Positions 1,140-29,100 of a stretch of DNA of 64,000 bases are shown here, in pieces; position 1 is the first letter of the stretch, and every line of letters starts with the position of its first letter. The translations under genes and the position numbers were made by a program. The notes under the pieces were generated by a model. That model searched no databases. It was given only the letters and a program-made list of their open reading frames with translations, and was not told where the DNA came from. This stretch comes from Phoronis australis (taxonomy: Eukaryota > Animalia > Phoronida), in the NCBI GenBank assembly GCA_002633005.1, contig NMRA01000270.1:456345-520344 (forward strand), in the 5' to 3' direction.

Positions 1140-4100
1140 CTAGAACGTTATAGCAAAGTTGACTGACATTTTCACTGTTCTGGTGAAGTACTGCCTTACC
1201 ACACATTGTGGTTAACATTCTTGTTTTACCTGGTTAGCAACCGTGGAATCAGCACCCTTTTCAATGAGGAGTTTCACAACTACCAGTTGGTTAAACCTAG
1301 ACAAGTCGTGGGGTGATGTGTCTTCATCCCACGCAGAGTGAAACGGTTTTAACGGAACAGACGAAATGAGCCATTTCCTATTTCGTAACAGGGTCGTGGA
1401 ATTGTATGTGGCATAGAAATGCCGGTCAAAGTATAGAAGCAAATTTGCCAATATTAAGCAAAAATCAAAATAAACCACATGTAATTTATTTCAATGTCAA
1501 TTCCCATGAACAGAACGATTTTTCTCTTGCTGAACCGAGTGAGGTGTCCCTTTCAGTAAACACCTTGTAATTAGACAAGTTCATCCGGTTTTGCAGTTTT
1601 ACGCAGTTCACGGTATAATCAACAAAGTACAGACTTTGTCCTTTAATCCTTTGGTTACTTGGTGTGCATTGACAAAAAGTGAAATACTTGTTTATTATGA
1701 AAAGCTTTACACAAAATACTGCAAAAAACACGGCATATTGACATCAAAACTAAGAAAAGGTTTTTCTGAAACCAACTTCCTTAAACTTGCAGGCACATTT
1801 CGATGACTAACCCTTTGTATCGTTGCTTTAAACATGAGAGGGCGTTCATCACTGGGTATGTTACATGAGAAAGGGTAAACTTCTCTACCCATTTTAACAA
1901 TTTCGTTGTAACATAGGAAATTAAATACCAATTAAAATACACAACGGCAATAAATGAATTGAAAATAAACTTACCACAATTATAAAGAAAACCATACCTA
2001 CATGAAAATCGTAAGATTAATGACAAACCAATTAAAAGACTGAAATACTACCATTGTACCTTAGAAAGATTTGCATGAAGAAATAATGCGATTGTACTTG
2101 TTGTTAGTGGCTTTTATTTCCAGAAGAAGTTCATGTTCTTCTTTGATGTCAAATGTGGCGCTGATGGTACTGTTTAGACTGATGCCTTTCACCCATTTGT
2201 CTACCTCTACGGCAGAAATTTCCATTGTGTCACGCTCTTTTATATCAATGTTTCTTTTGGAACCCCATAATTGAGGTCTAGTTGATCGTTTAGTCTTATG
2301 ATGTTGTGCATTGATCCGCTTTTGAATGTCTCGGTTTCTCCGACTTGACTTACTGTGTCTCTTACTAAAACTCATCTTTTTGATGGACTTTTATGTATTC
2401 CATCGATAGAAACAACTGGGGGCCTCAAATATTCTTCAACAACTGCTTTGTTGTTGTTGTTGAAGGGTGCCACGTCAGGAAAAATCTGAAAAGTAGTTGA
2501 GTATTTACTCAATTTAATGGTTGAGTCTAATCACATTGTAATGGTGACATGGTTAATTATCCGATTCATGAAAATAATCACATCAGATGGAAACAGCGAC
2601 ATATTAATAATAATACATGAAAACATAACAAAATCAACCATTTTCACTGTTCTGGTGAAGTACTGCCTTACCACACATTGTGGTTAACATTCTTGTTTTA
2701 CCTGGTTAGCAACCATGGAATCAGCACCCTTTTCAATGAGGAGTTTCACAACTACCAGTTGGTTAAACCTAGACAAGTCGTGGAGTGATGTGTCGTCATC
2801 CCACGCAGAGTGAAACGGTTTTAACGGAATAGACGAAATGAGCCATTTCCTATTTCGTAACAGGGTCGTGGAATTGTATGTGGCGTAGAAATGCCGGTCA
2901 AAGTATAGAAGCATATTTGCCAATATTAAGCAAAAATCAAAATAAACCACATGTAATTTATTTCAATGTCAATTCCCATGAACAGAACGATTTTTCTCTT
3001 GCTGAACCGAGTGAGGTGTCCCTTTCAGTAAACACCTTGTAATTAGAAAATTTCATCCGGTTTTGCAGTTTTACGCAGTTCACGGTATAATCAACAAAGT
3101 ACACACTTTGTCCTTTAATCCTTTGGTTACTTGGTGTGCATTGACAAAAAGTGAAATACTTGTTTATTATGAAAAGCTTCACACAAAATACTGCAAAAAA
3201 CACAGCATGCTGACATCAAAACTTAGAAAAGATTTTTCTGAAACCAACTTCCTTAAACTTGCAGACACATTTCGATGACTACCCCTTTGTATCGTTGCTT
3301 TAAACATGAGAGGGCGTTCATCACTGGGTATGTTAAATGAGAAAGGGTAAACTTCTCCACCCATTGTAACAATTTCGTTGTAACATAGGAAATTAAATAT
3401 CAATTAAAATCCACAACGGCAATAAATGAATTGAAAATAAACTTACCACAATTTTAAAGAAAACCATACCTACATGAAAATCGTAAGATTAATGACAAAC
3501 AAATTAAAAGAGTGAAATACTACCATTGTAGCTTAGAAAGATTTGCATGAAGAAATAATGCGATTGTACTTGTTGTTAGTGGCTTTTATTTCCAGAAAAA
3601 GTTCATGTTCTTCTTTGACGTCAAATGTGGCGCCATATGTAATTTATTTCAATGTCAATTCCCATTAACTGAACGATTTTTCTCTTGCTGAACCGAGTGA
3701 GGTGTTCCTTTCAGTAAATGCCCTACAATTAGAAAAGTTCATTCTTGTTTTACCTGGTTAGCAACCGTGGAATCAACACCCTTTTCAATGAGGAGTTTCA
3801 CAACTACCAGTTGGTTAAACCTAGATGAGTCGTGGAGCGATGTGTCGTCATCCCACGCAGAGTGAAACGGTTTTAACGGAACAGACGAAATGAGCCATTT
3901 CCTATTTCGTAACAGGGTCGTTGAATTGTATGTGGCGTAGAAATGCCAGTCAAAGTATAGAAGCAAATTTGCCAATATTAGGCAGAAAACAAAATAAACC
4001 ATATTCCCATGAACTGAATGATTTTTCTCTTGCTGAACTAGAACGTTATAGCAAAGTTGACTGTCATTTTCACTATTCTGGTGAGGTACTGCCTTACCAC

Positions 4101-4325
4101 ACATTGTGGTTAGCATTCTTGTTTTACCTGGTTAGCAACCGTGGAATCAGCACCCTTTTCAATGAGGAGTTTCACAACTTCTAGTTGGTTTATATCTAGA
4201 GGAGTCGTGGAGCGATGTGTCGCCATCCCACACTAAATGAAACGTGTTTAACGAAACAAAGACGAAATGAACCATTTCCTATTTCGTAACAGGGTTGTGG
4301 AATTGTATGTGGCGTAGAAATGCTG
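1140..4325. repeat. Mosaic local duplication: 1168-2160 repeated at 2640-3630 (offset 1472) with further shuffled partial copies at 3635-4325
   Basis: Near-identical ORF pairs 1212/2684/3739, 1486/2958, 1591/3063, 1707/3179. Confidence 0.9.
1230..1328 (-). pseudogene. Degenerate single ankyrin-repeat exon, copy 1 (further copies at 2702-2800, 3754-3852, 4128-4227)
   Basis: 33 codons DEDTSPHDLSRFNQLVVVKLLIEKGADSTVANQ ending at CAG|GTAAAA; fits ankyrin consensus TxLH....xVVKLLIxxGAD; acceptor lost in copies 1-3, frameshift in copy 4. Confidence 0.65.
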
Positions 4326-8044: not shown

Positions 8045-8221
8045 TTACTCGGCCTTAATGGCTGGCCGGTTGTTCCTCCAACAGTAGAAGTTAATGGAGG
8101 TTGCCAAGGACACCCACATTAAATAAGGAATCATCAGGTAGCTGGCAGTCTTGTTAATGGGGTAGAAGGTGTAGATGCACCCTGCAATGGCTCCCCACAA
8201 TGCAAGAATGTCGGCCAGTGC
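8045..8221 (-). CDS. TSPO: TSPO terminal coding exon ([10 protein letters not shown]...[19 protein letters not shown])
   Basis: ttcttgtag acceptor, 59 codons to TAA; TM4-TM5 with a CRAC-like C-terminal segment. Confidence 0.95.
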   Translation of the reverse strand, partial: ALADILALWGAIAGCIYTFYPINKTASYLMIPYLMWVSLATSINFYCWRNNRPAIKAE

Positions 8222-11200
8222 CTACAAGAAATAGAGTCCAGTCCATTAAAACATCTCTTCATTAGAAATTAGATACAAAAAATCATGTTGGGAGTCATTC
8301 ATGTAAGGAGCCCTGAAAGATCCATATAGATATGTTCCCGTGACAGAACCAGATGCATTCAATTCTCTTTGAAATTCATCAAACCCAAAAACCATGAAAG
8401 GAATCAGTTGAAAAATAAGCAAAATATCACAGAATATTTTCTTAAAGCCCCTGTCTGCTCACTATCTTTTTTCACACAGTTTGGGTTAAAGGTTTCGGTA
8501 GCCTGTAATTGGTCAGTTCAGTCATGAATAGCGACATCTATCATCTGGGTGGTTTGTAGAGTGATGCTGTATAGCTAGACAACCACATTAGTCATCGTAC
8601 TGTGTTTCAGCCAATACAATACATAAGATCAGAAGATCTGTCGTCGAAGCACAGAAGGAATCAACATAGGTATCTGACATCCATTTTACTTTCCTAGACA
8701 TTAAGATCTTTGCGCAGAATTTTGACACCACATCTTTAAATAATCAAAATGGTGGAACTTTTCCTCAGAAATGTGACATTCCTTAATGGTTGCTAAAATT
8801 TATCTGTATTCTAACAGTCGTGATCTAGCACGTCTTCATATCCCATCAACTTGCCACTTCAAGTTTTCAGACACAAATCTGGGCCTGGAATGTAATCTTA
8901 GTATTCGAAACAAACTCAAAATTATTTTTGGCAATTTCTCTGCTACTTTTGTCCAAACTCAAGATAAGTGGTAACTAGACAGTGCTTGAATACAGTATAG
9001 TTTACGCATACAAGTTTCTAGACCAAGTTTGCTCTTGATGACCCTTACATTCGTGGTACAAACTGAGTAAAAACTAGGATTAAAAAATTAACTACACAAG
9101 TCATGTACTCGAGCAGACTTATCTTAATTCGCAAAAAAGTACAGTAGAAAATACTGAACATAATTTCCAGGTCCATTTCTAGTAAAACGACTAGAACCCA
9201 GGCTTTGGGGTTACCCACAAAATGCAACGGGAAAGTGGTCACAGTATGTGTCTGAGCTGCAAAAATAACGAACAACCGATCGTTTTCATCTTGCATTAGT
9301 TCCCCCTTCTTAGTTGCTCCATAATGATTGGTGCAACTTAGCACTAGACTTGACTAAGAGTACATTGATTTTGATTAGCCAGTGGTCACTCAGTCCCTTA
9401 CTCTGTGGCTAGTTGTTTGTCACACTAGACTCTAAGAGTACACTGATCTTGATCAGCGAGCGTTCACTCACCCCTGTTGATCGGGTTTCAAGGTGATACA
9501 GCGCAAGTGTCTACAGCTCTCTTAATCATTAGTAGTTAAATACATGTGGCATTGGCACTAAAATCAATTCCACTGCATAAGTGACAGCATGAAAGCACTG
9601 GTAGTATGAATCAAAGTTCCTGAAATGATCACCTCATTTTCGTTTCACCCAACCTGATTTTACTTCATTCCATACCACTGTTCAGAGATGTCAATTTGCA
9701 AGTTCAAACATTGACCAAATTAACTCCTTACATAAAGCACTTGAGACACTAAAGCCTTCATATTTCAAATTTAAAATGCAGGGCTTGGAATGACCAATGA
9801 CAAAAAACGCGGACACTTTGAAAGTTTTACGGCCCAAATCGTCGCCCGATAACCAGCCTAGAACTGGTCGATGTGAACCTTTCCCCGACAAAAATCGGGA
9901 GGACTAAAAAAAAAAAAAACGTTACCACCAAGTGGCATGCGTCTGCGTCCTTTTAGCTCGCCCGTCTACTCCCAACCCACACATTTTTGGCTGCAGAGCG
10001 GTAGTATTTGTCGCCGCGCTTAACAATAACACAAGACGCCATTGAAAATCACACCACGCTATCCCAGATGCCCGGGCAATGTTGACAATTTAAGTTCCTC
10101 CGAACATAAAGAGCAACTTACGCTTTTCGAGGTGAACGTCGTCTGCAACGCCGCGATAAGAAAGGAATTTGCCGCAGAACTTTTATATCAAATCCGATTT
10201 TTTTACGCGGAAATATTATAAAAAAAGCGGAAAGCATATTTGAAAAAGCGGAAATCCGCGTTTCAGCGGAAAATTCCAAGCCCTGAAAATGGTTCGTGTT
10301 TACTTAGAGGCACTGGCTACAGGGCATACATTTCGACACTGCCAAATATAGGACCACAAGAATGCATGCATTTGGGTGTTTGGCCCCAAAATGCATTTAC
10401 ATATATCATACAGAAACGTCCAATAGCAACACACTAAAATAGTCTTTTCTTTAAAAACAAACTCTTTACGGACCATCACAACTGTTATCTTACCCAGCCT
10501 AGCTTCTTAGCACCAAAGAAGATGGGAGACCAAACCCAATTGAGAGCCAACTGTGTCCCATACAACGCCAAAGGGAGTCGGCCCTCACTTTCGGCGGCAT
10601 CTCGCCACACCAGGTATGATGCATATCCCATCCCTGTAACGAGAAAAGTAGAACAGGCTGCACTGGAAACCATTATGAATGTGACAAATAGACAAGGTGT
10701 ATATATTTTTGTAAGACTTGAAGAGAAAAACAATCTGTTTCAAAAGAAAATTAAAGTTAAAAAATTGACTTTCACTACCACCTCAGAACTTTAACATGTT
10801 AACTGTTAGCACATCACAATTTAAAAATAGTTTCTATAAAACACGCAGTAACTACCGTTAGAGGAAAAGCTTTACGCAGACAATGTACTTATGCTGAGGT
10901 GAGATTTAATTCCTTTTTAAAAATAGCATGGAGTAGAAAATGAATGATTTAAGACGCAACCACTGAGTCATAAACGGACTAATGTGATCACATTTTAGAC
11001 AGTCATGCAACTAACATGTCAAATATTCAATGGATCACAAGGCTTCATTGTTTTTTTAGGCTACATCTTTATTTACTGTAACATTTCTTCAAATTCGAGC
11101 AAAGAGGACAAGTGAAAATTTTCATTTTCCATTTTTCAAAAACGGCATCATTTATTATGCTTAAAGTTCATCAAGTACTTGTTGACAACACCTCTACTAC

Positions 11201-14200
11201 AAACTGGGAAGGTGACGAAGAGACCCTCTCTTCCAGTCTACCTTTCTTGAAAACTTTGATCATGACAAGCAATATTTCACAATCCACCACAGTGTTATAA
11301 ACTGACGAAACGTCACTATAGTAACCAAATTTTTCCACATCTCAAGACAAAAACGACCAGTTGCCAGTTGTTTGTTATTTCCTGTAGGTCATAACTAATT
11401 CTCATTCAATATTGTAACTGTCTGGTATTCCTTATGACACTATGTATACTTTGCAACACAGAGTATGACTACTGTTAGTGTGTTTGTGTATTCATATTGT
11501 CAAATAATGTGGCTACCTGCCACCACCAAACTTGAATCGAAAGCTCGTCTCAATTTACAAAACGCGTTCTATGAGATTGCTGTGCATGTTTAGTGTCACC
11601 CTCCTGAATTAATCTGTGGCTGCGTGAGGGAAATAAATGTTTTCTTGGAAAGAAGCACTACTGAAGAGACCAACCCTGATATAACGTAACAAAAACAAAA
11701 AACAATATATCTTCTTGTATCAAAGGTTCACCCACTGTACACTTCAACATTCATATGTACTCAACTGTACATCTCACCACTCATCTGCACACCTCATCAC
11801 TCACCTGTAACCCTCACCACTCACCTGTACACCTCACCACTCACCTGTATAGAGAGTAGTCCATACTGGGCCAAACACCCAGGGTGGCGGGTTCCACCTA
11901 GGTTTCTTAAGCTCCTACAAAACCCATCATATAATCAATAAAGATTCATTTAGACAAACTAGGCCACACTGATTATGAACATCAAGGCCAAGGTTAAAAG
12001 ACTGTGTAATTGTAGCTTGATTGGCATTCAATGTTTGAATATTAAATGTTTTGCATTACAAATACCTATGCGAGAAAAAACAAATATACCCAGCAAAGGT
12101 ACTATGGTATAAGACTTGACTGTCAATATATGCAATTTGCACTGTCAGGCTACTACTCGTTATTGATTCTTTTGTTACAGTCAAATTTGCAAATAATAAT
12201 TGCTGAATCGCTGTCACAGGGCACACACGCAGTAAAAGTACACGGGTGTTGACTAAACATACACCTCCCCTGCAAGTAAAATAGATGAAATTACTAAACT
12301 GAACATGCAGAGGACATTACGCAACAACCCACAACAAGCATGTTAGTAAGAAACTGGCCCCAACATGAAAACTGCAGTCTACCGTCACAATGACTTACCT
12401 TGTGGTACCAAGTTTTGATCTCAGGATTGGACATGTAGTTACCAAGGATACCACCTACATGTGGAGCTAGCACAGCGAGAGAAGGTTTAACCCAATGGTA
12501 GGATAACATCACTACAAAAACACAACACCACAGAGATAATACGCATGCTTCCTCACCTTGGTCTCGCTGCCTCCTGGCTCCAGTCATCAAGTTTTATAGC
12601 TGGACCCAATGGAAGGTCATTAAATGCCAATCATGGTCCACAAAATACACCATGGGAGCATTTAATTGAAACTGTCCATGCATATCCTGGGATAGGTATA
12701 CATTACCGAATGCAGTGTCTCATTTTGTTACAATAAGAAAATTTGTCGTTTTTTTCAAAAAAGACAACTTGCCATACTAGAATTGTTTCCCACATTCTTT
12801 GTGGCATGTTAAATAGAAGCAGAATTGAGGAGCTGTAGTATACACTCCTCTTCCATTTTTTCCAGTATGATGCAGTCACGTTACAAAAGTAAATTGCACA
12901 AAATGATTGAACTTAGTAAAAATAGTTACATTTTTATTACAAAGGTAAGCAGCTTTGCTTTTCTTTCTAATACTTTTCAAGGTCACTATTGCTCAATCAT
13001 CTTAAGCTTATTTTCTCAAGGAAGGTAAAGTATTTTGGGACTTCCAAGCATGCAGAGTCTCATTTTTACTAAAATCAATGACCATAAAATACACATCACC
13101 ATCACTGGCAGAAACCATAACATTGTAAAGTTAAAATCGTAGATGCTAACCTCATCTACATATAACGGCAGACTCAGTCTCCTAAAATTCTGATGAACTG
13201 TGCGACTCCAAAAAGATGTTTACAGCATCATAACAGAGATTTACAGTACGTCATCGTGAGATTGAATTTTTTTGTATCCATCCTACACCTTCTGCATGTG
13301 CGAGCTCAACGTAATGTCTTTGATCAGCCATGCTTTATACGAGTTAAATTCTTGTACAGGGGGGATTTGCCGAGCATGGTTCGAGTTAATTAATTTTTCC
13401 AGAACAAAGGGTTTGATGAGAGCAATTAAGACAACCTTCTCACTAATGACATTTCAAGAAGAACCTAAGTCTGCGTGTCACGAAATTGATAGGCAGCTGC
13501 CAACATTGTTCATAACAAGAACCTGCACAAATGAGTAGTGGATAAAATGAAAAAAACGGCTAATCTAAAATAATACAGCAGGCCAGTGAAATTTTATTTT
13601 CTTAATTTTTAACAAAAAAGGCAACGCCAAAAATCCTTTACTATTTAATGATGAGGACTTTATAATGTTCGAAGCCTTTGAAAAATATGATAAATAAAAT
13701 TGTGGGGCAGATTTTTTCAGGTAAAACTCAAGTATAAGTTTTTTCTTCTCAAATGCCTCAGTTGTTGGTTTCACTTTGGTTTCATTTGAATTTGTTTGTT
13801 TGTTTTCTTCTAATTATGTACAGTCATGATGGATGTTTTGAAGCCATTTCATTTATTTTCTGTTTTTACAAATGTGTGTTGACTTGTGTTAATATCAAAT
13901 CTAAATAATCTCGATTTCAAGGCACAAAGTGGTATAAAACATTCTTTGACAGATGCATTATAACAAAAAACTGTTATCAAATTCAGTTTCCTTGGTTTTA
14001 GAAGAAAAAAGTAATCTTCTTTCAGGTATATAAGCACAGGGCTCAGGTGGTCTAACACTGTGTGATCAACTTCTTCTGGCATTACAAATTACCTTGTCAC
14101 TAATTGGCAGAAAGGAGTAGGTTTGGAGCCTACCTACAGTACAATCAAGATGATTTACGACCAGGCTCACCGAATATCTTCTGAGCACCACGAATGAAGA

Positions 14201-17200
14201 CTAAAGACATACATCTTAGAACTTTTTAAAAAGGTTTCTGATTGCTTATTCACAATACAGGTCAATCAAAGTCACAGGCAGCAAACGGAGTAGATGTATG
14301 GCCTAATTCATCACTTCAAACTAATTCAATTGTCAAAATTGCCATATTTTGATTTTTCAAAGGTCAATTACGTTGCTCTAATAATTCAAATATTACCACA
14401 CATTGTTCAATGATTTCTTAACCTTTACTTTTTTAGAAACTTGACAAAATAAAATTTTCACTCAGTCTGTTTGCCATATTGTGTGCTGAATAAGTGAAGA
14501 GCTAGTGTGTTACGAGACACCCCTTGGAGGATGAAAACCACCGTTCGATAACTTTTGTATTGCACTGTTGAAAGGTCCTTATGGTAGTATAGCGGCCCCA
14601 CCATAATTCACTTGTATTCCTCAAAGGGACATATTTTCAGCATTACAGATATCTGACAGGGGCATTGTCAAGGCTTTAAGTAGGATCAGTGAGCTACACC
14701 TGGTATAGCTATACCAGGTGTAGCTCACAGGTAGTGTTGGTAGGACCTAAATAATTGGCTGGAATTCTCAACTGCATGGGACACAATATAGGGAATTCAT
14801 CTCTACCACAAAGTACTATAATTGTGTACAACTGGGAAAACACCGACAGTTCTGAATCAATGTTGCCAAAAACACCTGTTAATCAGTCCATCTACATACT
14901 GGTAATAACAATTTACTGCAAAGTACCAATGAACTTCTCACAAACAAGTTAGTCATACATGACGTAGACTACAGTTTCTCTGTTGACAACAGTAAGTCGG
15001 TAAAAGCAAGTTAGTGTTAGTTTATCCCCACACACAGCCTTCTCTACAGTCTTCGACTCATCTCAGTATGGTAAAAATTGTTCAATTTAAAAAATGAAAT
15101 TTCTGTCAGCCATATTGTTTCCTAAACTGAAGACGTTTTACTGTAGTGAGATTATCTTTCCCACGTACACAGAATGCAACAAGTTTGAATTCGTCAGGAA
15201 TTTCAGTCATTTTTTAAGGAAATCCTAACATTTTGTGAGTTTGAAATGTATGCACCTGTTCACTGAGTGATGATTCCAAGGCAGTATTCCATACCAATCC
15301 ACTCAATATAGATTAGGACTTCAAACGTGTTCATGAATTTTGTAATTCCATCGAGTTTGAAATCTGATGTGTTGGAAGAGTGATGTGCAGATAGAGTACA
15401 TGAACAAGGCCAAGTAGAACATCATAAATGCCATTATTGCATCATTTTTCACATTATCACTTTTTTGTTATATCTATTGCTCATTTTTTCTTGAATTAGT
15501 CAACCAGAATCAAATCTTAGATATCTGTCCTCATTATGTTTTAAAAACAAAAATGTCTGATTTCAAAAATGCAAAGACATTTCGATTTCAAGTTTTGAGT
15601 ACATGAATAATGACATTTTTGAAAAAAACAGAAAAACTTGGCCAGCATATACGAAATGTTAGTCGAATATTCAACCAAACAAACAACAGTAAAACATGCT
15701 TGTTGAACATTCCCATTTGTGTGTTACAAACAGGACAGGATAATGCACCATCCAAACAATTCTGACCTTAATATACCATGGAATCTGTCCATCAATGATG
15801 GTTGCTGAGTACTGTGCTCCGACATGGGGGAGGAGTGTAGCAAGAGTTGCATTGAGAGAGGGGACCCATGACAAAGCATCCATGACACTCCTTCAAAGAA
15901 ACCGCACACCAGTCACTTACTTTGAACTGTGGGTAATGTTTTGGGCACTTGACCCTGAAAGTCCTTACTGACATAACTATTGTTAAGAAACGGTCAAGTC
16001 ACTCCTAGCTGACATTGTAAAGAATGTTTACAGTGCCGGCAAAAAGAATTTAGGAAAACAAAAATCAGTATTCCTAGATGTGAAATTTCTCCCTTCATAA
16101 CAACTTGTACAAAAATAATTATAAATTATAGCACAAAATTATAGCAAGTAAATCATCAATAGCAAGAAAAAATGAAATGTCAAGCATTTCTAATGTTCAA
16201 AATCAATTATAAAACTGAAATAAACCAATAATGAATTTAGAATATTGGAAAATATATATCAACAGCATATGCAATAATAGTCACCACACCAACCAGGTAC
16301 TTTGATACTTACAGCTTCAGTCTACACCTGTTTCAACAATTGTCTGCTCATCAACTGAGTTCCACAGGAAGCACTAATCAATGTAGTAGCCTTAACTATT
16401 GTCTCATAACGAGGCACTTGTTTGCATAGTCTGGAATTCATGTGACAGACACTTTGATCAGATAAGGTGTTGTATAGGGTGGAAGAAGAAAGAATTCATT
16501 GGAACATGTTTTCGCATTTTTGTAGAACAAACTGCTATTTTGCTATGCAATTAACAGCTTAACTTCATAAGGAATTTATGGGTTTCGAGAATGAATCTGC
16601 AAGATATACCAGTGTTCTCCATGCCATGTTTTAACAGGTTGCCGAGACATGCTAGATTTCGCCTCTGACCTGTTTAAATAGCCTGCGACACAACTGATTT
16701 TTTTCATTCTGAACAAAAAAGTATCATTTTAGTGTGTTTGCCATGATATGCACACGATGCACACTCTCTTAATATTCAAAGTGGTTGAAATGCGACTTGT
16801 ATGAATTTTTGAGAGTAGAAAGAATACATTGTGCCGGCACACCACAACAAGTTTATGAAAGAAATACCTGTTTCAAGTAGACATAGAGCATATAGTAAAC
16901 GCCTTACTTATATATGACCTTGAACCATTAAACAAACCAGTAACTATTGCCACCTAGTGATAGATATCATAATGTCACCACCCTGAAACCTTCCCAAATA
17001 TCATTAATGAATATCACCAACAGCACTAAACCATATATCATTCTCCGTCTCAATGAGAAACAACTCTAGACGAGTTTTATTATGGTAAGTGGATTTTTTA
17101 TACAAGGTGTGGGTTTACATTTGCTTGATATGTGATCTTGACCCGAGTCATAACATATTTAACAATAATTGAAATAGTGTCTATACAAGATTAGAAAAAT

Positions 17201-18914
17201 AAATATTTACGTTGTTTTCATTTTTCTTAATTCAAAAGCTCTACAAAACACTAATAATGATTTATCCCTAGCTCAGACAAAACAAGAAGCTGTCTGCCTG
17301 AAAGAATTACAGGTGATATACGTTTTTGTAACCACAGAAGCAGGTGGCGTTTAGAGACATAAAAGCTAAGTCTATTACTATAATCATCAAGTAAGAGATA
17401 GCTTGCCCACCAGCAGTCTGTCAACTAGGTGGGAAAATTAATGATTTCCGCTTCAGTATGCAAGAAACTGGAAAACCACAGAAACCATTTGGAAGTTTTC
17501 CTAATGCACACCATTTGGTGTCCAGAGTGGCAAAAAGCTGGACATGAAATACCACAGGAGAACGTGTTCAATATAGAAGTTTATGCGTGAACTTTAAAGA
17601 GCCTTTACTGTTACACAACTCCTACCTGTAGAAGAGACATTTTAATATGGAGGTGGAAGGAAGGGTTATGAATCCATTGTCATTTCTTCTCCAATACACG
17701 GGTGAGAAACAACATGACCGCTGGTCCTCTAAATCGGACTGATTCACCCAAAACAGGACCTCCGGGGATCAAATGGGACCGTCGTACCAGAAAATGGGAC
17801 TGACGCACCTAAAAACATGACCGCGCCACCACAAAACAGGACCGCCGGGGACTGAACATGACCGCCGGACAACATGCGGTTTCAATCCAAGGCAGTCATG
17901 CTCAGTCCCCGGCGGTCCTGTTTTCTGGTGGGGCGGTCATGTTTTTAGGTGCGTCAGTCCCATTTTCTGGTGCGACGGTCCCATTTGATCCCCGGAGGTC
18001 CTGTTTTGGGTGAGGCGGTCNGGGGTGAATTCTGGGCTTGGGAAGACCCAAAACATCATTGGTGCTTGAAACCATGTTCTGTGCATGAACTGACCTGCCA
18101 TGACAAGCCAACTACATAGGCAGATCCAGATACGTCAAGGTGGTCTGGATCCTCCTTTTCCCCTCGATTTTAGTGATATCAATTCTAGAATTTTCAAATT
18201 GTTGGCTTGTATGCCCTTTTTTAAAAAATCCTTGATCCGACCCCCACTTTTAAAAAATCCTGCATCCGCCCCTGAACTACTAGTAATTGAGCCTGGTATC
18301 AAGCAATAACGAACTGTCAGTCGTGATCCTAAGCCCAGGAATTTGCTTTTATAACCTGACAACTTGTAACGTAACAGTACAAAATGAGACCATTTATACA
18401 ATGGCAAGTGGTATAAATCAAATGTTTTTGAAGCAACGGGGGTTTATAAGAGCACTTCAGCAGTACTACCTGAAAACTGACCTATCACAAGCTCCGCCCC
18501 CATGCAAAATGTCGACAAACAAACAATAAGTTTTACCCTGCAAGGTGTTGTTTGTTGGGTAAAACGGCGGCTTGGAAACAAAGATGTGTCAAAAATGTTG
18601 CATTCTGATTGGTCAGTTAAGCCGTTACTCAAAATCCTGGCGATAGGTCAACTGCAGGCATTCAGGAAGTCACTAATAATACAGATGTTTGTGTTCCAAT
18701 CTCTTCAGATACTAAGGCGAGGCTCTTCATTTATAATTGCACCACCTAGTGAATGTGAAAACCAAATTTCCAAGTAACATTCTGTAAATTCAAGGCACAC
18801 CTTGAACCACTCAGATTTCACGGCATCACCGGTGATGACTTTTGCTGGATATAGCCCCAGGAAAGGCAGCAATATCCCGGAGACTGGGGGGACTAGCTTG
18901 CTCATTCCTGTCAT
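8045..18914 (-). CDS. TSPO: Translocator protein (TspO/MBR family), whole coding span; three alternative first coding exons (18801-18914, 15767-15883, 12399-12509) joined to shared exons 11845-11914, 10494-10633, 8045-8221; 165-167 aa isoforms
   Basis: Spliced translation ...W(Y/F)xK|[24 protein letters not shown]|[11 protein letters not shown]...[26 protein letters not shown]|[10 protein letters not shown]...[23 protein letters not shown] matches the TSPO family motifs (LxKPxWxPP, GPVWxxLY, QLALNWxWxPIFF, PYLxW); GT-AG introns with phases 0,1,0. Confidence 0.95.
9779..10285. mobile_element. Non-autonomous hAT-like element with 6-bp TSD
   Basis: TIR CAGGGCTTGGAAT...ATTCCAAGCCCTG flanked by AAAATG on both sides; same left end at 31477 and 52101. 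Confidence 0.8.
10494..10633 (-). CDS. TSPO: TSPO shared exon 3 ([11 protein letters not shown]...[10 protein letters not shown])
   Basis: gttacag acceptor, TGG|GTAAGA donor, 140 nt; lies within ORF 10485..10733. Confidence 0.95.
11761..11850. repeat. 20-bp minisatellite (about 4.5 copies) overlapping the TSPO exon 2 splice donor
   Basis: Unit tcacctgtacacctcaccac at 11761, 11781, 11801, 11821, 11841. Confidence 0.85.
11845..11914 (-). CDS. TSPO: TSPO shared exon 2 ([24 protein letters not shown])
   Basis: ttttgtag acceptor, CAG|GTGAGT donor, 70 nt, signature KPxWxPP motif. Confidence 0.95.
12399..12509 (-). CDS. TSPO: TSPO alternative first coding exon A ([37 protein letters not shown])
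   Basis: Acceptor tttttgtag ending at 12512, ATG at 12509, donor AAG|GTAAGT phase 0; closest to the canonical TSPO N-terminus (LAPxxGGxxG...WY). Confidence 0.9.
14689..14728. repeat. Perfect 40-bp palindrome
   Basis: GTGAGCTACACCTGGTATAG|CTATACCAGGTGTAGCTCAC, no spacer. Confidence 0.95.
15767..15883 (-). CDS. TSPO: TSPO alternative first coding exon B ([39 protein letters not shown])
   Basis: Acceptor ttctttgaag ending at 15891, ATG at 15883, donor AAG|GTCAGA phase 0; WVP..TLLPHVG..WY motifs. Confidence 0.85.
17700..18030. mobile_element. Foldback-like element: about 118-bp inverted arms built from about 20-bp subrepeats
   Basis: 17744-17861 is the reverse complement of 17895-18013; subunit aaaacaggaccgcc; single N at 18021. 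Confidence 0.7.
18117..18274. mobile_element. Short GC-ended MITE (CAGGGGCGGATCCAG-type ends); related copy at 45549-45699
   Basis: Ends AGGCAGATCCAG...CTGCATCCGCCCCTG. Confidence 0.55.
18475..18654. mobile_element. MITE, same family as 7711-7863
   Basis: AACTGACCTATCAC...GCGATAGGTCAACTG; shared core GATTGGTCAGTT..GCCGT.ACTCAAAATCCTGGCGATAGGTCAA. Confidence 0.75.
18801..18914 (-). CDS. TSPO: TSPO alternative first coding exon C ([38 protein letters not shown])
   Basis: Acceptor ttttcaag ending at 18919, ATG at 18914, donor AAG|GTGTGC phase 0; LLPxxG and WFK motifs as in TSPO TM1/loop 1. Confidence 0.75.
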
Positions 18915-19343
18915 AATTCTTGAAAACACAAAACAATGAGAACAATGAGCCTCGAACAATAACTGAAAAATGGATTGTTATTATAAATTCATAGCTGACT
19001 GAAGCATAATTGCACTTCAAGTACTACACCAAAACAATACACAACATGATTTTAACTTGCAATTGCAAATTTCATGTATCTAAGTCTGAAGTGCCAGATC
19101 ATTGACAAAACTATTGCCCAGGTGTGAAGATGCAAAATTTCATAAAATTTGGATTGCCTATTTTTCCACCTAGGCAGAAATGACTCGCTGTACGTTCGCT
19201 GTACGTTTAGAAATAAGGTCAAAATATGTGGATTACACATGCAACTTAATGATAAGATGCAAAGAAACTGATTAATATTCTAACAATAATTGATTGACAG
19301 TCATGTGCCTTCTTAAAATGACATTTAAAGTCCTAAGGTTTAC

Positions 19344-19380
19344 CTTCAGCAGATCGTTTCAGCAACAGATTGGCCACAGC
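19344..19380 (-). other. Candidate non-coding 5' UTR exon of TSPO upstream of exon C
   Basis: Strong acceptor tttgttttattatttcttag and donor AAG|GTAAAC bracket 37 nt with no ATG. Confidence 0.4.
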
Positions 19381-19853: not shown

Positions 19854-20940
19854 GTTACTGCAAGTAGACTACAAATTTCTTTCTTCTGACTTAGTGTTGT
19901 GGACAGACTTTCTGACTTGTCAGTTCTAGCTTGCCATTCATGAACTAGTCCATTGCTCACGCCAGGGTATATGACCCTTGAGGCGAACAATGTAAAAATG
20001 GCCAGTCACCGATTCGAGCAACTGCACAAAAGACTGACATTATAAAAAAAAAGTTTGACTGTGGGGTTATTTGTTCAACGAAGAGTTAAAGACATCAGAG
20101 GCCTACTAAGGTGTCGCTCTATTCACAAAAGGTACTTATAGCAACAAGACTTTATGGAGGGCCTATGCCTATGGCATGGCCACCGTCTCTACTGGGACCA
20201 GTTGAGACAGTGGTAATGTCACGATCTAGGTAGACAGTTACATTAGGCAAGTATTCTCTAGCATGAGACTTTATAAAATTAACTTTGCGTGGTTGCCTGT
20301 TGCCAAATGGTTGGTTAAAATTAATGTTAGCTTATTAACATGTAATTTGCTTTAGTGCTTTGCAAATTTTTTATCAACGTAAAGATGATTATTTGAGTGA
20401 ATTTGTTAAGTTTCCTCCTGTATTCCATGTTCATGCACACGCAATTCATGCACCTTGAGATTAAGCAGGATTCCAATTAGGCAGCAGGCATGCAGGGGCG
20501 ATAGTACATCCCCACAAAAGTTAAGAATTTCAAAATACAAGAAACAAAATCAAATGAAACATGATACCTTCCCATGCTATTTTGCAAGTGCCACGCACTA
20601 GCGTCACGCGCTTCGCTCAGTCTCGTGCTAGCCTTTGCCTAACTCACTTGACTCAGTTGAAACACTCAGACTCTGTGGTTATCGTGCACATGGTGGAAAA
20701 GTTAACGGTGACCAAAAAAGTGGTGTTGGAATTCTTCGCCAAAGTCACCTTAATTCTGGTAACTAAGCTTTATCGAAGATATGAGAAGAAATAGAAAGGA
20801 CCACTGAAGAATGTAAGTGGTAGTTGTAAGCATGAAATGCATTTTTGACGAAGTGAAAACTCCTAATCGTTGGCCGGATTTGGCTCACCACCCGTTTGAA
20901 ATACACGGGACGAACTTCATACAGAAGGCAATGGGAAGTA

Positions 20941-22469
20941 TAGCCTCGGTACAAAGCTGTATATAAATATACAGCTTTGCACCGATGTGGCTAAAAAAGT
21001 GGTAAGATAAAATCTGACACAAAACAAGTGTCATTAAAATTAGTCTTCCTTGAGTAAACAAAATTATTCAACAGTGTTGGAAAAAATGGCGTTCTACTGT
21101 TATTCTGCTGCTAAAGTTGTGGAGCGATCTTTAGCAACGGCTTTCGGCGCCATGAAATATTGCGTCACCTATTGGCCAGTTTCTTTTTTGCCAATTCTTC
21201 AATCAACTGCTGTTCTTTCACGAGCTCGCGTACACATCACAACAAATTATTGGAACTGGTTTCACTTCATTATAATTTTTTAGAATTCCGATACCGAAAT
21301 ACCGAAAAACCGAATTATAACAAATTTCGCTTCTCCGAAGTGGTCGTAAAAATTTAGGAAATGGCGCGTGCCCGTGACACGAGCGTATTGTTTTCGAAAC
21401 GATGACATACTTTTCATTGCTAGAAAAGGCGGAGAGTTACGCAAGAAAATGACGTTTATTGCATTGTTTTTCAATTAAATGGCTGTAATGGGCAAGGTGA
21501 GTACCGGGTTGATTCCCAGATTTTGCTAGCCAGCCAGCTAGCTGTATGAAGACTGTCGTCAAAATACAGCTAGGTCCCACTGCGTATATTTCTTCCATAG
21601 ACCCCGAAATTGCACACAGCCAGGGTAGTTCTGCTCGTCACCGCGCCGTGAAACTTGTATCAACATGTAAAGCTAAAGACCGGACGGTGTGCATGCAAAA
21701 TCTGGGAGCCAACCGACACTCACCTTGGCCGTTACAGCCGTTTAAGTGAAAAACAATGCAATAAACGTCATTTTCTTGCGTAACTCTCCGCCTTTTCTAA
21801 CAATGAAAAGTATGTCGTTGTTTTGAAAACAATACGCTTGTGTCACGCGCACGCGCCATTTCCTAACTTTTTGTGACATCTCTCGGGTGATGACGATAGC
21901 TTGGCAGCAAAATTTCTTCTGAAATTCGATTTTTCGGTATCAAAATTCTAAAAACTATAATGAAGTGAAACCAGTCCTGATAATTGGTTGTGACGTGTAC
22001 GCAAGCTCGTGAAAGAACAACAGTTGAATGAAGAATCGGCGAAAAAAGAAACTGGCCAATAGGTGATGCAATATTTCATGGCGCCGAAAGCCGTCGCTAA
22101 AGATCGCTCCACAACTTTAGCAGCAGAATAACGGTAGAACGCCATTTTTTCCAACACTGTTAAATAATTTTGTTTACTGAAGGAAGACTGTAGTTTTTAA
22201 TGACGCTAATTTTGTGTCAGATTTTATCTTACCACTTTTTTACCCACATCGGTGCAAAGCTGTATATTTATATACAGCTTTGTTCCAAGGCTAGATTTTG
22301 CATGCACCCCGTCCGGTCTTTAGCTTTACATTTTGATACACGTTGCACGGCGCGGTGACGAGCAGAACTACCATGGCTGCATGCAATTTCGGGGTCTACG
22401 GAAGAAATACAAACAGTGGTACCTAGCTGTATTTTTACGACAGTCTTCATACAGCTAGCTTGCTGGCTA
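20941..22469. mobile_element. TAGCC...GGCTA-ended non-autonomous DNA transposon (outer copy), interrupted by an inverted copy of itself
   Basis: Flanks TGGGAAGTA / TTGGAAGTA (9-bp TSD, 8/9 match); subterminal hairpins; degraded third copy at about 25227-25740. Confidence 0.8.
21527..22293. mobile_element. Inner (nested, opposite-orientation) copy of the same element
   Basis: TAGCC...GGCTA ends; (A)GATTTTGC duplicated at 21518-21526 and 22293-22301. Confidence 0.8.
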
Positions 22470-22561: not shown

Positions 22562-23019
22562 CGGCATTGATCCAGGCCCAGGGCGATGTAGTTATATAAA
22601 ATTTCAATGGTCTACAAGGTCACAAGCGGCCGACAGGCAGAGACTGACGCAAATAGCCAAGTCTCACCCCAAAACAAAAGCCGGCTGACAAAAGATGTGA
22701 TTAAAGTTAGGACATTCAATGTGGCTAAAAAAATAAACCTTTTACGGTTACTTTTTGGAGTAAAAGTTACCTACTGGAAGCGTGCTTCTGATGCCAGTGG
22801 CGTGTAAACTTTGCCCTTTGCCTCTTTGACCTATTTAGCAAAATCCCAAAAATTATTTCATATTTGTCATCTTGTATGTTCAAAAGGTAATAATTGACCA
22901 ACATTTAATTTCATTTTCTAATCAAAATTGTTTTTGTCAATAAAGAAAGAATTTCTTAAAATAATTGTTTTGTGTAATTCAAACCTGGTGCGGTTTACCT
23001 ATTTGCCTCTGTGTAGAAA

Positions 23020-23119
23020 ATGGCCTCTCCTCCAACACCGACTGCCAAGAAAGACAAGAAAGACGAATCTTTCTTGGATAAGATTGGCACTATAGGCAGG
23101 AAGAAGAAGGCAAAAGAAG
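23020..23119 (+). CDS. parvin: Parvin coding exon 1
   Basis: tgtgtag|AAAATGGCC start context; donor GAAG|GTAAAA. Confidence 0.9.
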
Positions 23120-26100
23120 GTAAAATGTGTTAGGCTGAAGGGACATTAATTAATAGTGTTGCATCATAACTCGATAACCTGTTTGGGCCGGGAATTTAAC
23201 CGACGACTATCTTGACGAGAAGGGTGTGGTCTCACCTTTGGCAATGACCATCGCCTCTGTTGGTCCTACCAGAGGCGATGCAGCCCCTACAGGCGCTCCA
23301 TATGCCGGAAGCTTTTCGACGAATTATGCCTCACACCGACTAAAACATCAAAGTCGCGTTGCTATAAATAACTTTTGCGCATAGAGGAACACTTTAGGAG
23401 GTTGTCGATGTGTTTAATTCCTTCCAACTCGAACAAATACTCCCGTTATCAAACTTTTTATTCGAGCAGTCCCTATTTCAGTTCCCAAAATCGTGAACTC
23501 AACATTTTCACTTGGCGCACGCCAAGAAATATGACCTCATTCTTATAACCAGGCCGAAGGTCAGAAGTTGCGGTCCTACCGGCAAACTTTGAAAGCTGAA
23601 TTCCCTGCCCTCTGCGTACATGCTGCCGGGAACCAGCCGTGCATTTGCCATGTTGCTAAACATTAAAATGTCAAATATGTGCACAAAGACTATTAAATGT
23701 CATATCAACAGCATTTATTTTTATCAAATTCAAACAATAATTCATTGAAACACAATCAGTTTCAATTAACGCCAATTAAAGACAAGTAGTGGTGGCATTT
23801 TGGAAACGAACATTTAACTGACAAGACCGCAATGGCTCACCTTTGGCCTATTTAAAGATTGAGGTCATGAAGTCACATCACCTAGCGAGCGCGGTAAAAA
23901 TTGGAGCGTGCGCAGTATAAAAATGGTGAGTTCACGATTTTGGGAACTGAACGAGTGACTGTTCGATCAAAAGGATCGATAACGGAAGTATTTGTTAGAA
24001 TTGGAAGGAATGAAACACACCACCAACCTCCTAAGGTGTACGCAAAAGGTACTTATAACAACGTGACTTTTATGCTTTAGCCAGTGCGAGGCATAATTCG
24101 CCGAAAAGCTTCCGGCATATGGAGCACCTATAGGAGCTGCATCGCCTCTGGTCGGGCCAACAGAGGCGATGGTCGTTGCCTAGTCTCACCTGTGCCTGTG
24201 GTCACTGTGGCTGACGGATCTCAGATACCTTTTGTGTTTGAACTATTGAATTATTAGGCCTTTGAGTTGACAGTGCTGAAAATGAAACCCCTTTTATATC
24301 TCAAAGTCTTGTGGAGAAAGGAGTGGAAGAAGTGTTGGTTCGAATTAGCCAGCCAACTGTATGTCAACAATCGTCAAAATAGAGCTAGGACTAAGTAATC
24401 TGGCACTAGTCGGATATAATGGACTCTAACTTATTCCAAATAAATCCACTAAATGTAGGTCTAAATGAACGATTTTGGTATCGTTGCATTCCTCAGACAT
24501 CTGGCTTTCCATACAAATCCTTTTCACGACCCTCAATTACTTTAGTCTATAACTATGCTATTCCGAACTCGGTCCACTTTAGCCACGCGCATCGTGAAAT
24601 CGGCAGCCATTTCAGCGAACTTACTGTATCTAGTGACATCTATGGGCAATTTGCTACAACACGCGCTCTTCCTTTTTCATCAGTCAACGTCATTGGTCGA
24701 TTTCGTCAGTTATTAACGTCAGTGGTTATTAATCATCGTACGTCTGCTCTCGTCATCACCTTCGTCGTCTCTCTCACAATCGTATCTGTCATCATCATGT
24801 TATCGTCATCCATGTTAAAATTACATAATAAACCATCCTATCTAATTGTACCATATAAGATAAGCATAGTTCCTGTAAAAACCACAATACTATTACTAGT
24901 TCATCTCCTTTTCTTTTAAAGACAAGAAAGTAGTGCTAAGAAACTGAATTCACTCAACAAAAATATCAACGAAGGGCTAAAACAATTAACAAATAGTATC
25001 ACAACCTAGCTGAATATGTACACCTTGAGATTGTACTAGTAAATGGACACCTTTGGTGGAGGCAGTTCAAGTCTTAGGGAACATTGCGGGGGTGTTAATA
25101 TAAAGCCAAAGACTAAATATACACCGCCTGGGTACTTGTGCTCTTAAAGTGTCGTGATTTTTATGTTAACATGATGTTAATAAGGTTCGTGATAAGTTGA
25201 CGACCAGTGTTCTATCACAGCAGGTTGCATGCAAAATCTGAGAATCAACCGACCTCTTGCCCATTACAGCTGTTTATTAAATGAAAAACGATCTAATAAA
25301 CAGGATTTTCTTGCATCATTCTCTGGCTTTCTGACAAAGAAAATTCTGTCATCAACTTAAAAGACTACGCTTGTGACATGCGCCCTCGCCATTTCCTAAT
25401 TTTTTGTGATATCTTCTAGAAGATGATGACATGTTCACCAAAAAGCAAAATTTGGTCAGCAAGTCAGTCTGCTGGTAATAGAATACTGAAAATTTATAGC
25501 AAAGTGAAACCAATTCTGGTCAACTATGGTCAACTGCACAAAACTTTGTGAAAGAAGGACGAGTGAAAACAAACAGCCAAAATTCCGTGGTCCTTCCTAA
25601 GTATAACTGCAAAGTAGCGGTCTACTAACAGCATTATTGTTGCATCAGTAAGTTCACTGATTTACCTTTGGTTGAGTGTAGTTTTCTTAGGACAATAATT
25701 TTGTGTCAGATTTCGATTCCCTTGCTTTTCCACAGATGGAGGCACTCGTATTGATTCTAGAGAGTAAGTGGCTTCCAGTGACATTGATTAACTTTGTGTT
25801 TGTTTGCGGTCTTCATAATGTTGAGTTGGTGTCTTGTATTTTACTACAGCTCTTGACTTACAAGAGGAAGGGAAGAATGCCATCGAATCGCCAACAAGTC
25901 CTACGAAGAATCCAGATTTTGGACCGGAGGCATATTTTTTGGGTACAACTCAACGACCAGTTTATTTGCTTGATAGAACAAGATGGTGTTTACTGTATAG
26001 TTTTCTTAAAATGTTTTCCATCTAATTTCATTTGCCAGTGTTATGTTAAGACTTAAGTATTGGTCAAAGCTGCATTCCCTGGGCATTTAGGTAATGCAAT

Positions 26101-29100
26101 CGTGAGAAAGAAAAGGGTTTGTTGAATTTTGTCTTGCTATGCAAATTTGCTGTTAGAATGCATTACCTTGCTGTGGTCGTTTTGTGTGTTTATGTACAGT
26201 TTCATTCTACATACAACGTGGCTTTGACATGGGCAGATGTAGGATGTCGTGGACAAGTGGATTTTTTATTCCATCAATTTTTCAAAAAAAAATAACTTTC
26301 AAGAAAGAATTTGTATGTTGGTATCACAGTTTGTATAATTGTCACTGAACAACATTTTGTGAATTTCTAAGCATTTGTAGCAAAGTAATGAGCCTTTTTT
26401 TAAATGCCAGTTTTAGCCAAGATTTTTGTCCCAGATTGTAGAAGTTTTACCTTACATACTGTGTACAGAGGTGTGCAAACTTATCGTGACGTAAGAACAT
26501 GTTTGTTTTGCAGAGGAGAATGAAGAACGATCAATGATTGAACCTCAGTCACGAGAAGATCCAAAGTTAAAGGAACTTGTTTCTGTTAGTATTGACCTTA
26601 AGCGGTGTTAGACTTAAACACACGGGGACGTTTTGTTGATGTGAGACTCTTGGGAATGAAAGCTAGTGTGATCACGTGCTTCTCTTTGTAACACATGCCA
26701 GTATCTAGCAGAGGCTTGCGTGATCTCGCTTTTCTCACAAGAAACTTGCGGTACAGAATAGTTGGGTTCTGATCAAAGCTTTGATGTAATAGTAATTTGT
26801 TTGAATTGATGCCTGCCTCTGCTTTCTTCTTTCACAGCACGATAGTTATAGTTAGTTTTAAGTAGAAAGTGCTGGGTTGTTGTGCTGTATGGAATCACAC
26901 TTTGACTCATTCTGAGCATAGAGTTTAAAATCTGAGTAACTGCGTCAATGACATTTCACACATGGGCAAATCACTATTATGATAGTTTGTGTCATTTTGC
27001 TGCTATCTTTTTCAAAGAGCATCCTTTATGAAAAATGGTCATATGCTCATTCTTCTGACAAAAAATGTTCAAAATGTGATTTCAAGTCTTTTTGGATGTA
27101 AAAATTTTTAATACTTGGCTCATGCTTGAAAATTGTCAAGAAAATATAAATCGCATTATGAGTTTTTAAACCTACTTTCTCTTGGTTATTTTATTCTCTG
27201 TAAGTAAAGATCTATACAGTATTTTTGCTATTTTTATCTGCACCTTTTGATCAAATTACTTCTTTCAGATACGTTTGTTCCCTCACTTTGTATTCCACGT
27301 AATTTCTCAGCAGTGAATGAATAATTGATGTGTGTTATAATGTTGTTTGTTGGATCGTGTTTATAATTATTACAGATTTTACTCGACTGGATTAACGATG
27401 AACTAGCTGACCAGCGTATCATAGTAAAGGACATTGAAGAAGACTTGTTTGATGGGCAGATTCTCCAGAAACTCATTGGTATTGTATAATTCTACCTTTG
27501 CCTGATGTGTTTGTCTCATTGGTATTGTATAATTCTACCTTTGCCTGACGTGTTTGGCTCATTGGTTTTGTATAATTCTACCTTTGACTGACATGTTTGG
27601 CTCATTAGTATTGTATAATTCTACCTTTGCCTGACATGTTTGGCGTGTTTTTCGTACCATTCAACAAGAATGTTTTTGGAAAGAGATTACCAATCTCTGG
27701 ATTAAAGGTTTCACTCATATCATTTGTTTGGAGTTTTTGATAACTGGTTGAAATATTGTTGGTTCTTTTCAATTTTACAATTCTTTATAGTAAAGTCTAG
27801 CAATACTGTATACAATATGGACTAATAAAATGTTATTTTCTTGTTGTTTACTGAGGATATGTAGCAACAAATTATTTTTTACCGTGTTCACATTCTGTAC
27901 AGTAGCTACCACTAGATAATTTTGTGAAAAGTTGTGGGCTATTTTAATAAGCACAGGCCCAGAAATCACTTTTGCATTATATCCAGGTTCAAATGCATTA
28001 TCTTGTATACATTCACTAGTAAGACCGAGCTCGGAGGAGTAAGAGACATCTTTGTGCAATTCTAAATTGTCTGCCACTATGGCCAGGATTCAAACCCGGA
28101 TCTCACAAACGGGAGTCTGGAGCTCAAACCACTTAGCCACACAGTCTTCTTGAGGGCTATCACAACATATTAAAAAGATTTGAAAAATAAAAATGGCATT
28201 TATTTTTATTCAAAACTGGTGAGATTTTGCTGCAATTATCCTTTTTAATTCTGATAGTGATTCTAATTAGTGCTTTTTCGTTCTCTACACTCACTGAATG
28301 TCAAAATGGAGCTCATTAAGCAAATTTGATTGACAAGACAAATATGTCACACATCCTCCCCACAGATGTTGATCGTCATGGATGAGACAGAAATCCAAAC
28401 CTGGACCTCTCATGTGAGAGAAGAAGGTTAGGATTGTGTAGACGATTTAGGCTGATGTTTTGATGTTTGACTGTAGGCCATGGAATCGTTCCCATGCCCT
28501 ATGTCTTCATGCCTCTTAATTTGTCTATAACTGCTCACATCTGTGTTTGTCTACAGAGAAGTTGGCTAGCGTGCGTGTGGAAGTGCCCGAGGTGACACAG
28601 TCAGAGATCGCTCAGAAACAGAAGCTGAAGATGGTTCTAAACACTATACATCAGTACCTCAAAATACCTGCACACTATAACCAGCAGAAATGGAGTGTCG
28701 ATGGTAGGAACACGGCATTTTCACTTTTTCCTGTGTTGTTACTTGGCGGAATTCTTCGAATTCCGTCAAGTATGTTGCTCTGACAGCAAGTTTTTTTTTT
28801 TTTTTTTTTTTNATTATCCTTTTTAATTCTGATAGTGATTCTAATTAGTGCTTTTTCGTTCTCTACACTCACTGAATGTCAAAATGGGACTCATTAAGCA
28901 AATTTGATTGACAAGACATATATGTCACACATCCTCCCCACAAATGTTGATTGTCATGGATGAGACAGAAATCCAAACCTGGACCTCTCATGTGAGAGAA
29001 GAAGGTTAGGATTGTGTGGACGGTTTAGGCTGGTGTTTTGATGTTTGACTGTAGGCCATGGAATCGTTCCCATGCCCAATGTCTTCATGCCTCTTAATTT

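Follow-up and report, generated by a model that had tools for sequence, protein, structure and literature searches.

A TSPO gene of Phoronis australis with three interchangeable exons for the first transmembrane helix

A 64,000-nt stretch of contig NMRA01000270.1 from Phoronis australis (the window; intron-rich animal DNA with a GC content of ~38%) carries one TSPO gene on its minus strand, in which three ATG-bearing exons, named A, B and C, are swapped for one another on a single set of shared downstream exons. We regard this architecture as practically certain. The likely products, as read from the sequence, are three proteins with the same core and a different first transmembrane helix (TM1) and loop 1 at the ligand entrance. 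The fuller statement, in which different TM1/loop-1 segments on an identical core also retune the ligand pocket, is one that we hold with moderate confidence.

Three coding exons joined to one shared set

Expression was assessed in three raw RNA runs (X1, X2, and X3) from a single study, with ~18–19% of each sampled; count triplets such as 15/7/11 give the three raw-read runs in that order. Exons A, B, and C were each spliced to the shared exon at 11914 in 3/3 runs (A, 15/7/11 reads; B, 9/5/19; C, 13/7/50), and loose-end reads at 11916 gave 13/10/51 for the exon C joint. The shared exons were joined to one another by 23/16/58 reads (11845..11914 to the next exon) and 24/18/57 reads (8220/10493). 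All TSPO joints were GT-AG, on the minus strand, with matching strandedness. A preliminary description of this DNA, made from the letters alone, had proposed that one locus makes three TSPO mRNAs with interchangeable TM1 and loop-1 exons and had named the junctions 12399>11914, 15767>11914, and 18801>11914 as the place to look; reads cross each of them in all three runs. It had also named the outcome that would speak against the idea, namely that only A is spliced and that B and C are unexpressed or have downstream exons of their own; instead, B and C are expressed and join the same exon as A.

The proportions of A, B, and C were 41/24/35%, 37/26/37%, and 14/24/62% in the three runs, with exon C the most used variable exon in one of them. 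Isoform share differed with run (chi-square 13.6, 4 degrees of freedom, p 0.009), a p value that is optimistic because read mates are not independent and the exon C counts came from a separate read mapping. The runs differ in genotype; therefore, tissue and individual are confounded. In a further contig set (X4), only two downstream joints were seen. Two single-nucleotide polymorphisms, both synonymous, were found among reads over exon B, in a very small sample.

The exons themselves occupy the minus-strand positions given in the preliminary description. All three have an AG acceptor, an ATG shortly inside the exon (2 nt for A, 7 nt for B, 4 nt for C), an unbroken run of 37 (A), 39 (B), or 38 (C) codons, and a phase-0 AAG|GT donor. 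Spliced in silico to 11914–11845, 10633–10494, and 8221–8045, exons A, B, and C form open frames of 165, 167, and 166 aa, respectively. A tblastn search with the isoforms found one copy of each shared exon within the 64-kb window, as had been reported, and no variant was among those listed for reads over 11845..11914. A pattern scan (AG, ATG, 30–49 open codons, W-x(1-2)-polar, GT) returned precisely exons A, B, and C on the minus strand and one match on the plus strand; 30 shuffled windows gave a mean of 0.53 matches and a maximum of 2.

The three exons are homologous. Their pairwise scores were equalled by 0 (A-B), 8 (A-C), and 0 (B-C) of 1000 shuffles, with 16, 10, and 14 identical residues, respectively, and as neighbouring exons that are alike in length and phase they are tandem exon duplicates. 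No DNA similarity above shuffles was found among the three leader-intron-exon units, so the duplication looks old, in agreement with the earlier proposal from the sequence. By eye, leaders U2 and U3 seem to resemble each other. Membership of the TSPO family comes from the last shared exon, which matched Pfam TspO_MBR (PF03073; E 5.4e-15, 55.8 bits, cut-off 24) and the solved TSPO structures 2MGY and RsTSPO. A TspO_MBR match, which the preliminary description had suggested seeking with each spliced isoform, was thus obtained for the shared end; single variable exons gave no Pfam match, 37–39 aa being too short.

Joints were considered from three reads upward, at low depth, and both joint tables hold the best rows only. 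To that threshold, the variable exons are used singly: no double-inclusion or all-skipped joint was among those listed at three or more reads, and the three joints listed within 11740–17700 did not include A-B. The loose read ends at A and B carry leader sequence and not that of exon C; the loose ends at the shared exon matched exon C alone, with an agreement of 0.97–1.0. In computed transcripts, C followed by B shifts frame and stops after 70 codons, and C+A and B+A read TGA as the first codon of A, stopping after 38 and 39 codons, respectively. Skipping all three exons leaves a 104-aa frame that lacks the start codon of the variable exons, TM1, and most of TM2. Docking/selector pairing of the Dscam type gave nothing above shuffles, in a weak test on one sequence with three candidate docking regions (best shared duplexes −17.2, −18.1, and −17.9 kcal/mol versus shuffled means of −17.0, −18.1, and −18.0).

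The preliminary description had taken A, B, and C to be first exons; instead, they are internal, with acceptors that are used, and each is preceded by a non-coding leader. Leader U2 was joined to exon C by 10/10/50 reads (19344>18918), and its sequence also matched loose ends at the 5' edge of exon A (8 reads in X1 and 8 in X3), as did that of leader U1 (10 reads in X1 and 6 in X3). Exon B is preceded mainly by leader U3 (16312>15889; 11/17/19 reads), which is largely its own. The X3 loose-end consensus at B was U3 mixed with the tail of U1 (agreement 0.69), and U1 probably feeds B too. Among the best 15 of 20 rows, which go down to 3–6 reads, none is a loose end on the 5' flank of U3, so U3 is likely to be a first exon with its own promoter; its read depth was 7.7–17 in the bin 16317–16515. 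Molecule ends for U1 fell at 22815 and 22809 (5 reads each), with the donor CCA|GTAGGT. For U2, joint sides reached 75 nt, more than 37 nt, consistent with the 80-nt form. The best 15 of 86 joints included no U1>U2 joint. Choice from a common upstream exon is therefore seen for U2>C and U2>A, with U1>A and U1>B in the mixed consensus only. Given the acceptors, the leaders, and the use of U2 for both C and A, the choice of exon is part splicing and part promoter.

Several features of the leaders and of the shared donor were noted in passing. Splicing of U1 straight to A (22775>12511) creates an extra in-frame ATG over the junction and hence a Met-Met start, and the upstream open reading frames (ORFs) of U3 are short and could damp translation of B. 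A 20-nt tandem repeat at 11759–11858 places several copies of the shared exon's donor in the intron that follows; use of the repeated donors was not seen among the joints listed. The 3' untranslated region (UTR) of TSPO reaches ~7080, as judged from UTR depth and molecule ends at 7079.

Table 1. Exons and leaders of the TSPO gene, in order of transcription
Feature	Position	Strand	Details
Leader U1, non-coding	22775..22815 (5' end approximate)	-	Loose ends at exon A
Leader U2, non-coding	19344..19380	-	Joint 19344>18918; acceptor at 19423 would give 80 nt
Variable exon C	18801..18918	-	ATG 18914; 38 aa; predicted TM1 + loop-1 helix; ends WFK
Leader U3, non-coding	16313..16450 (5' end approximate)	-	Joint 16312>15889; short upstream ORFs
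Variable exon B	15767..15890	-	ATG 15883; 39 aa; predicted TM1 + loop-1 helix; ends WYIK
Variable exon A	12399..12511	-	ATG 12509; 37 aa; predicted TM1 + loop-1 helix; ends WYHK
Shared exon, remainder of loop 1 + TM2	11845..11914	-	Takes all three variable exons
Shared exon, end of TM2 + TM3	10494..10633	-	Joints 10632/11844 and 8220/10493
Shared last coding exon, TM4-TM5 + stop	8045..8221	-	Pfam TspO_MBR match

The swapped segment and its counterparts in other animals

Similar swaps were sought among 277 collected proteins (30 clusters opened), of which 252 were aligned with the three isoforms; the other 25 were left out because of length or because they were repeat or duplicated models. There were 34 groups with a C-terminal part at least 97% identical, and five of them hold a pair less than 80% identical in TM1/loop 1: the gene in the window, Lingula, Branchiostoma, an oyster cluster, and one coral pair. 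We discounted the last of these, which reflects divergence between species rather than a swap. The reverse pattern, a constant N-terminal part with a variable C-terminal part, was found in 0 pairs.

The Lingula, Branchiostoma, and oyster-cluster swaps are known from protein records alone. Lingula anatina comes closest to the arrangement described here: its annotated RefSeq isoforms (XP_013383795-803; P0019 and P0122-P0125) have three N-termini, identical at 8–9 of 31 residues, on one identical 130-aa remainder, and the switch falls at W-x(2-3)|DLKKP, the same point as in Phoronis. In the Lingula accession series, the same proteins also appear under two sets of isoform names, which hints at two annotated loci with three N-terminal variants each. 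In Branchiostoma, where the swap is seen among isoforms of a single species (P0126, P0128, P0131, and P0133), the unit is larger than here: the isoforms differ from TM1 until midway through TM2 and are then identical at 105/105 positions. It is smaller in the oyster cluster (P0184 versus P0196 and P0191), in which residues 1–17 are identical and only 18–31 differ; these variants are unnamed assembled transcripts and weaker evidence. The differing boundaries suggest that a swappable TM1/loop-1 segment may have arisen at least partly independently across these lineages. Trees of the constant and variable parts had mostly little resolution, with unsettled bootstrap values; they did not pair the Lingula variants with A, B, or C, and they place neither this animal nor a shared versus an independent origin.

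Other candidates were set aside. Nematostella (25/31 identical in the N-terminal part, 130/130 in the C-terminal part) and P0018/P0021 were ambiguous and left out of the count. Isoforms of Limulus, Mytilus, and Aplysia differ by short N-terminal extensions only, and Elysia P0004 and Acipenser P0016 carry internal duplications in their gene models; all were rejected as swaps. The sole match in a search of 50% representatives with exon A was a spurious 622-aa repeat protein, also rejected. A profile search, built on a fragment alignment with misplaced ends, returned 20 proteins, all already in the set, and no close relative of this animal.

The junction between variable and shared parts corresponds to A35|G36 of mouse TSPO, a position mapped through Lingula P0122, whose alignment to mouse 2MGY is gap-free in this region; the swapped unit is the equivalent of mouse residues 1–35. 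For the most divergent Lingula isoform, AlphaFold (108-row alignment; pLDDT 91.6) predicts helices spanning 5–27 and 30–43; the swap point falls where the second helix ends, and the model matched TSPO structures (E 3e-7). The Lingula model thus indicates that the swapped unit consists of TM1 and the loop-1 helix. P15, G18, and W33, present in 116/116 homologues, are retained in A, B, and C, and the TM1/loop-1 signature (P15, G18, W33, an aromatic residue at 34, and L-x-K-P-x-W-x-P-P) is complete in all three isoforms. Exon A is the nearest of the three to the family consensus and is the only one to keep the consensus glycines G19 and G22 (87% and 89% of the 116 homologues, respectively). The A/B/C residues are N/A/K at position 23, S/I/T at 26, and Y/Y/F at 34.

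Some of these positions have known roles in ligand binding. According to the accessible text of PMC6470738, A23 and V26 of mouse TSPO contact PK11195, V26T abolishes binding, and changes at Y34 lower affinity 2.5- to 5-fold; vertebrate TSPO2 likewise differs at A23, V26, and Y34 (PMC6470738). In Bacillus TSPO, the available part of PMC10598825 places porphyrin entry between TM1 and TM2, with polyethylene glycol at site 22 blocking it, and a loop-1 arginine is described as a possible lid in the heme-bound Rhodobacter structure (available part of PMC10077581). One of the three tandem-duplicated ATG exons is spliced onto the single shared set; we propose that promoter choice and competition between acceptors would select it and that nonsense-mediated decay would clear double inclusions. 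All three mRNAs would then be translated and would fold as five-helix TSPO proteins, in which the pocket tryptophans of TM2–TM5 would be constant across isoforms and changes at mouse-equivalent positions 19, 21–23, 26, and 34 could alter ligand entry or affinity. In this way, the swap is predicted to change the tuning of the pocket for porphyrins and drugs at its entrance and along one wall. The different pocket lids or targeting suggested in the preliminary description are plausible, given where the varying residues map.

In UGT1A, the variable part determines substrate choice. The preliminary description had likened the TSPO locus to UGT1A and the clustered protocadherins, and the likeness stands for the protein layout, a variable N-terminal part with one constant C-terminal part; it fails for the mechanism, since the TSPO exons have acceptors and leaders and U2 feeds both C and A. 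As described in the accessible text of PMC8373072, the variable exons of UGT1A and the protocadherins are large first exons with a promoter each, whereas the TSPO exons are cassettes of 113–124 nt that follow leaders and specify a single helix and half of one loop in a five-helix bundle. The mark of variable first exons, namely that every variable exon comes first and has a promoter to itself, does not apply to the TSPO locus, where only the leader of B is largely private. Human GCNT2 and KCNAB1 are closer in kind: they have three interchangeable 5' coding exons, N-terminal substitutions derived from tandem exon duplication (PMC8373072, accessible text), and, like TSPO here, they use three homologous 5' coding exons singly on shared 3' exons. 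The TSPO locus belongs among these tandem-duplication N-terminal substitutions. The accessible text of PMC8373072 credits such substitutions to alternative promoters, whereas at the present locus the three exons are internal and two of them are supplied by a single leader; the main text of that paper has 0 mentions of TSPO.

Vertebrate TSPO, by the partial accounts available, is a four-exon gene that has been diversified through whole-gene duplication (TSPO/TSPO2), unlike the gene described here. In the human splice variant PBR-S, exon 2 is absent, not swapped (accessible text of PMC10997928), and the accessible text of PMC4965458 names Branchiostoma for CYP genes only. The preliminary description knew of no account of N-terminal exon swapping for TSPO, and we found none in the literature searched, whose coverage left out most subscription papers. 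The Lingula and lancelet pattern is visible in automated RefSeq models; it is thus in the databases, apparently unremarked, and the exon swap is apparently undescribed for TSPO.

Neighbouring genes and repeats

A gene at ~23020–26513 on the plus strand, parvin-like by its N-terminal motif, starts head-to-head ~200 nt from leader U1, and its joints 23117>25848 and 25941>26513 were present in all runs. A bidirectional promoter common to U1 and this gene is possible. Farther along, a gene that is TEAD-like by its TEA-domain motif contains tandem near-duplicate TEA-domain exons of 128 nt on the minus strand (48482–48355 and 48311–48184). The two differ at 4/42 residues and lie 43 nt apart, and from their sequence and spacing they are probably mutually exclusive exons enforced sterically. 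The gene order across 8045–50111 is TSPO, parvin, TEAD. Vertebrate neighbourhoods include PARVA-TEAD1, TSPO near PARVB/PARVG, and TSPO2 near TEAD3; by analogy, the order found here is a possible ancient linkage.

Large palindromic elements resembling miniature inverted-repeat transposable elements, at 20931–22469 and 23240–24180, flank the promoter region of U1 and the parvin-like gene and carry many reads from other copies. A 130-nt hairpin lies at 17737–18020. Two tandem duplications with 97% identity, 1167–2161/2639–3633 and 28235–28740/28813–29318, are possibly uncollapsed haplotypes; the former adjoins an ankyrin-like fragment at 3739–4131.

Competing explanations and implications

The assembly was considered as a source of the pattern; in that case, B and C would be parts of other TSPO genes, with downstream exons of their own that the assembly has lost or collapsed. 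The window does contain assembly-like duplications and, elsewhere, a 589-base gap, and the single-copy status of the shared exons covers 64 kb only. Nevertheless, reads join B and C to exon 11914, extending up to all of its 70 nt with no variant listed, U2 is spliced to both C and A, and a lone N at 18021 is the only masked base from exon A to exon C; the chance that separate genes explain the data is close to negligible. It is also very improbable, in our judgement, that A alone makes a working TSPO and that the transcribed B and C give inactive, unstable, or inhibitory products. The near-invariant G19 and G22 are missing from both, and exon C encodes proline at position 21 and, at position 23, lysine, which 0/116 homologues have there. 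Against this, the proline occurs in 8/116 homologues and in the oyster-cluster variant, B and C together account for 59–86% of junction reads, and both keep P15, G18, W33, length, frame, and splice sites despite the loss of DNA similarity between the units.

Two further explanations place the benefit outside the pocket. The swap could alter location or partners, through insertion into the outer mitochondrial membrane versus the endoplasmic reticulum or through dimer and partner contacts, which we think rather unlikely. TSPO paralogues differ in location; the entire N-terminus is swapped, the segments have net charges of +1, −2, and +1, and TM1 hydrophobicity ranges from 0.83 to 1.37. None of the three exons has an N-terminal extension, however, and the oyster-cluster swap spares residues 1–17 and changes only 18–31, which points to the pocket-side end of TM1. 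Alternatively, the duplication could have been kept for regulation, with leaders and promoters that make expression differ by tissue or stage and with coding changes that a helix under weak constraint tolerates as drift. B has its own leader carrying upstream ORFs, isoform shares vary among runs (in the comparison given above, with reads that are not independent), and B and C are on long branches. But U2 reaches both A and C, so diversity of promoters does not require these two coding exons, and several distant lineages vary the same segment; we give this explanation a small chance.

Retuning of the pocket by the swap has its own difficulties. In ordinary single-exon TSPO proteins, too, variation is greatest in TM1 and loop 1, so divergence by itself is no proof of adaptation. 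TM1 hydrophobicity is 0.83 in A and 1.00 in B, compared with a minimum of 0.91 and a 5th percentile of 1.03 among 117 homologues, and these unusually polar helices keep the targeting explanation alive. The five-helix fold was modelled for a Lingula isoform with the same breakpoint and is a prediction for A, B, and C, as are the translation of the isoforms and their ligand differences. Loop 1 has been argued to be a brace for loop 3 rather than a lid (accessible text of PMC10598825). On the side of the RNA data, the runs come from one study with tissues not stated and genotypes that differ, the lack of double-inclusion joints depends on the three-read threshold at low depth, and upstream junction reads number 136 versus 97–99 downstream, for which coverage bias is the sole explanation offered.

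TSPO is a major target for imaging and for drugs, and there is dispute over both its physiological function and the route by which ligands enter it. The three expressed mRNAs of this locus are natural chimeras, alike except for the segment disputed as lid, brace, or portal wall, and a comparison of the A, B, and C isoforms would test the role of TM1 and loop 1 directly. It also represents N-terminal exon substitution achieved partly via splice choice behind shared leaders, a route usually credited to alternative promoters. Variation of the same segment in distant invertebrates suggests a recurring pressure to diversify it. More tentatively, and with doubt prevailing, TM1 and loop 1 may be the "variable domain" of animal TSPO, made swappable independently and with different boundaries in this animal, a brachiopod, lancelets, and oysters to give a repertoire of entry gates. 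If so, one gene would supply entry gates for tetrapyrroles or xenobiotics of varied chemistry on a porphyrin-degrading core that stays constant, a small-scale counterpart of UGT1A in a membrane protein, and the ancestral role of TSPO would include discriminating among several ligands.

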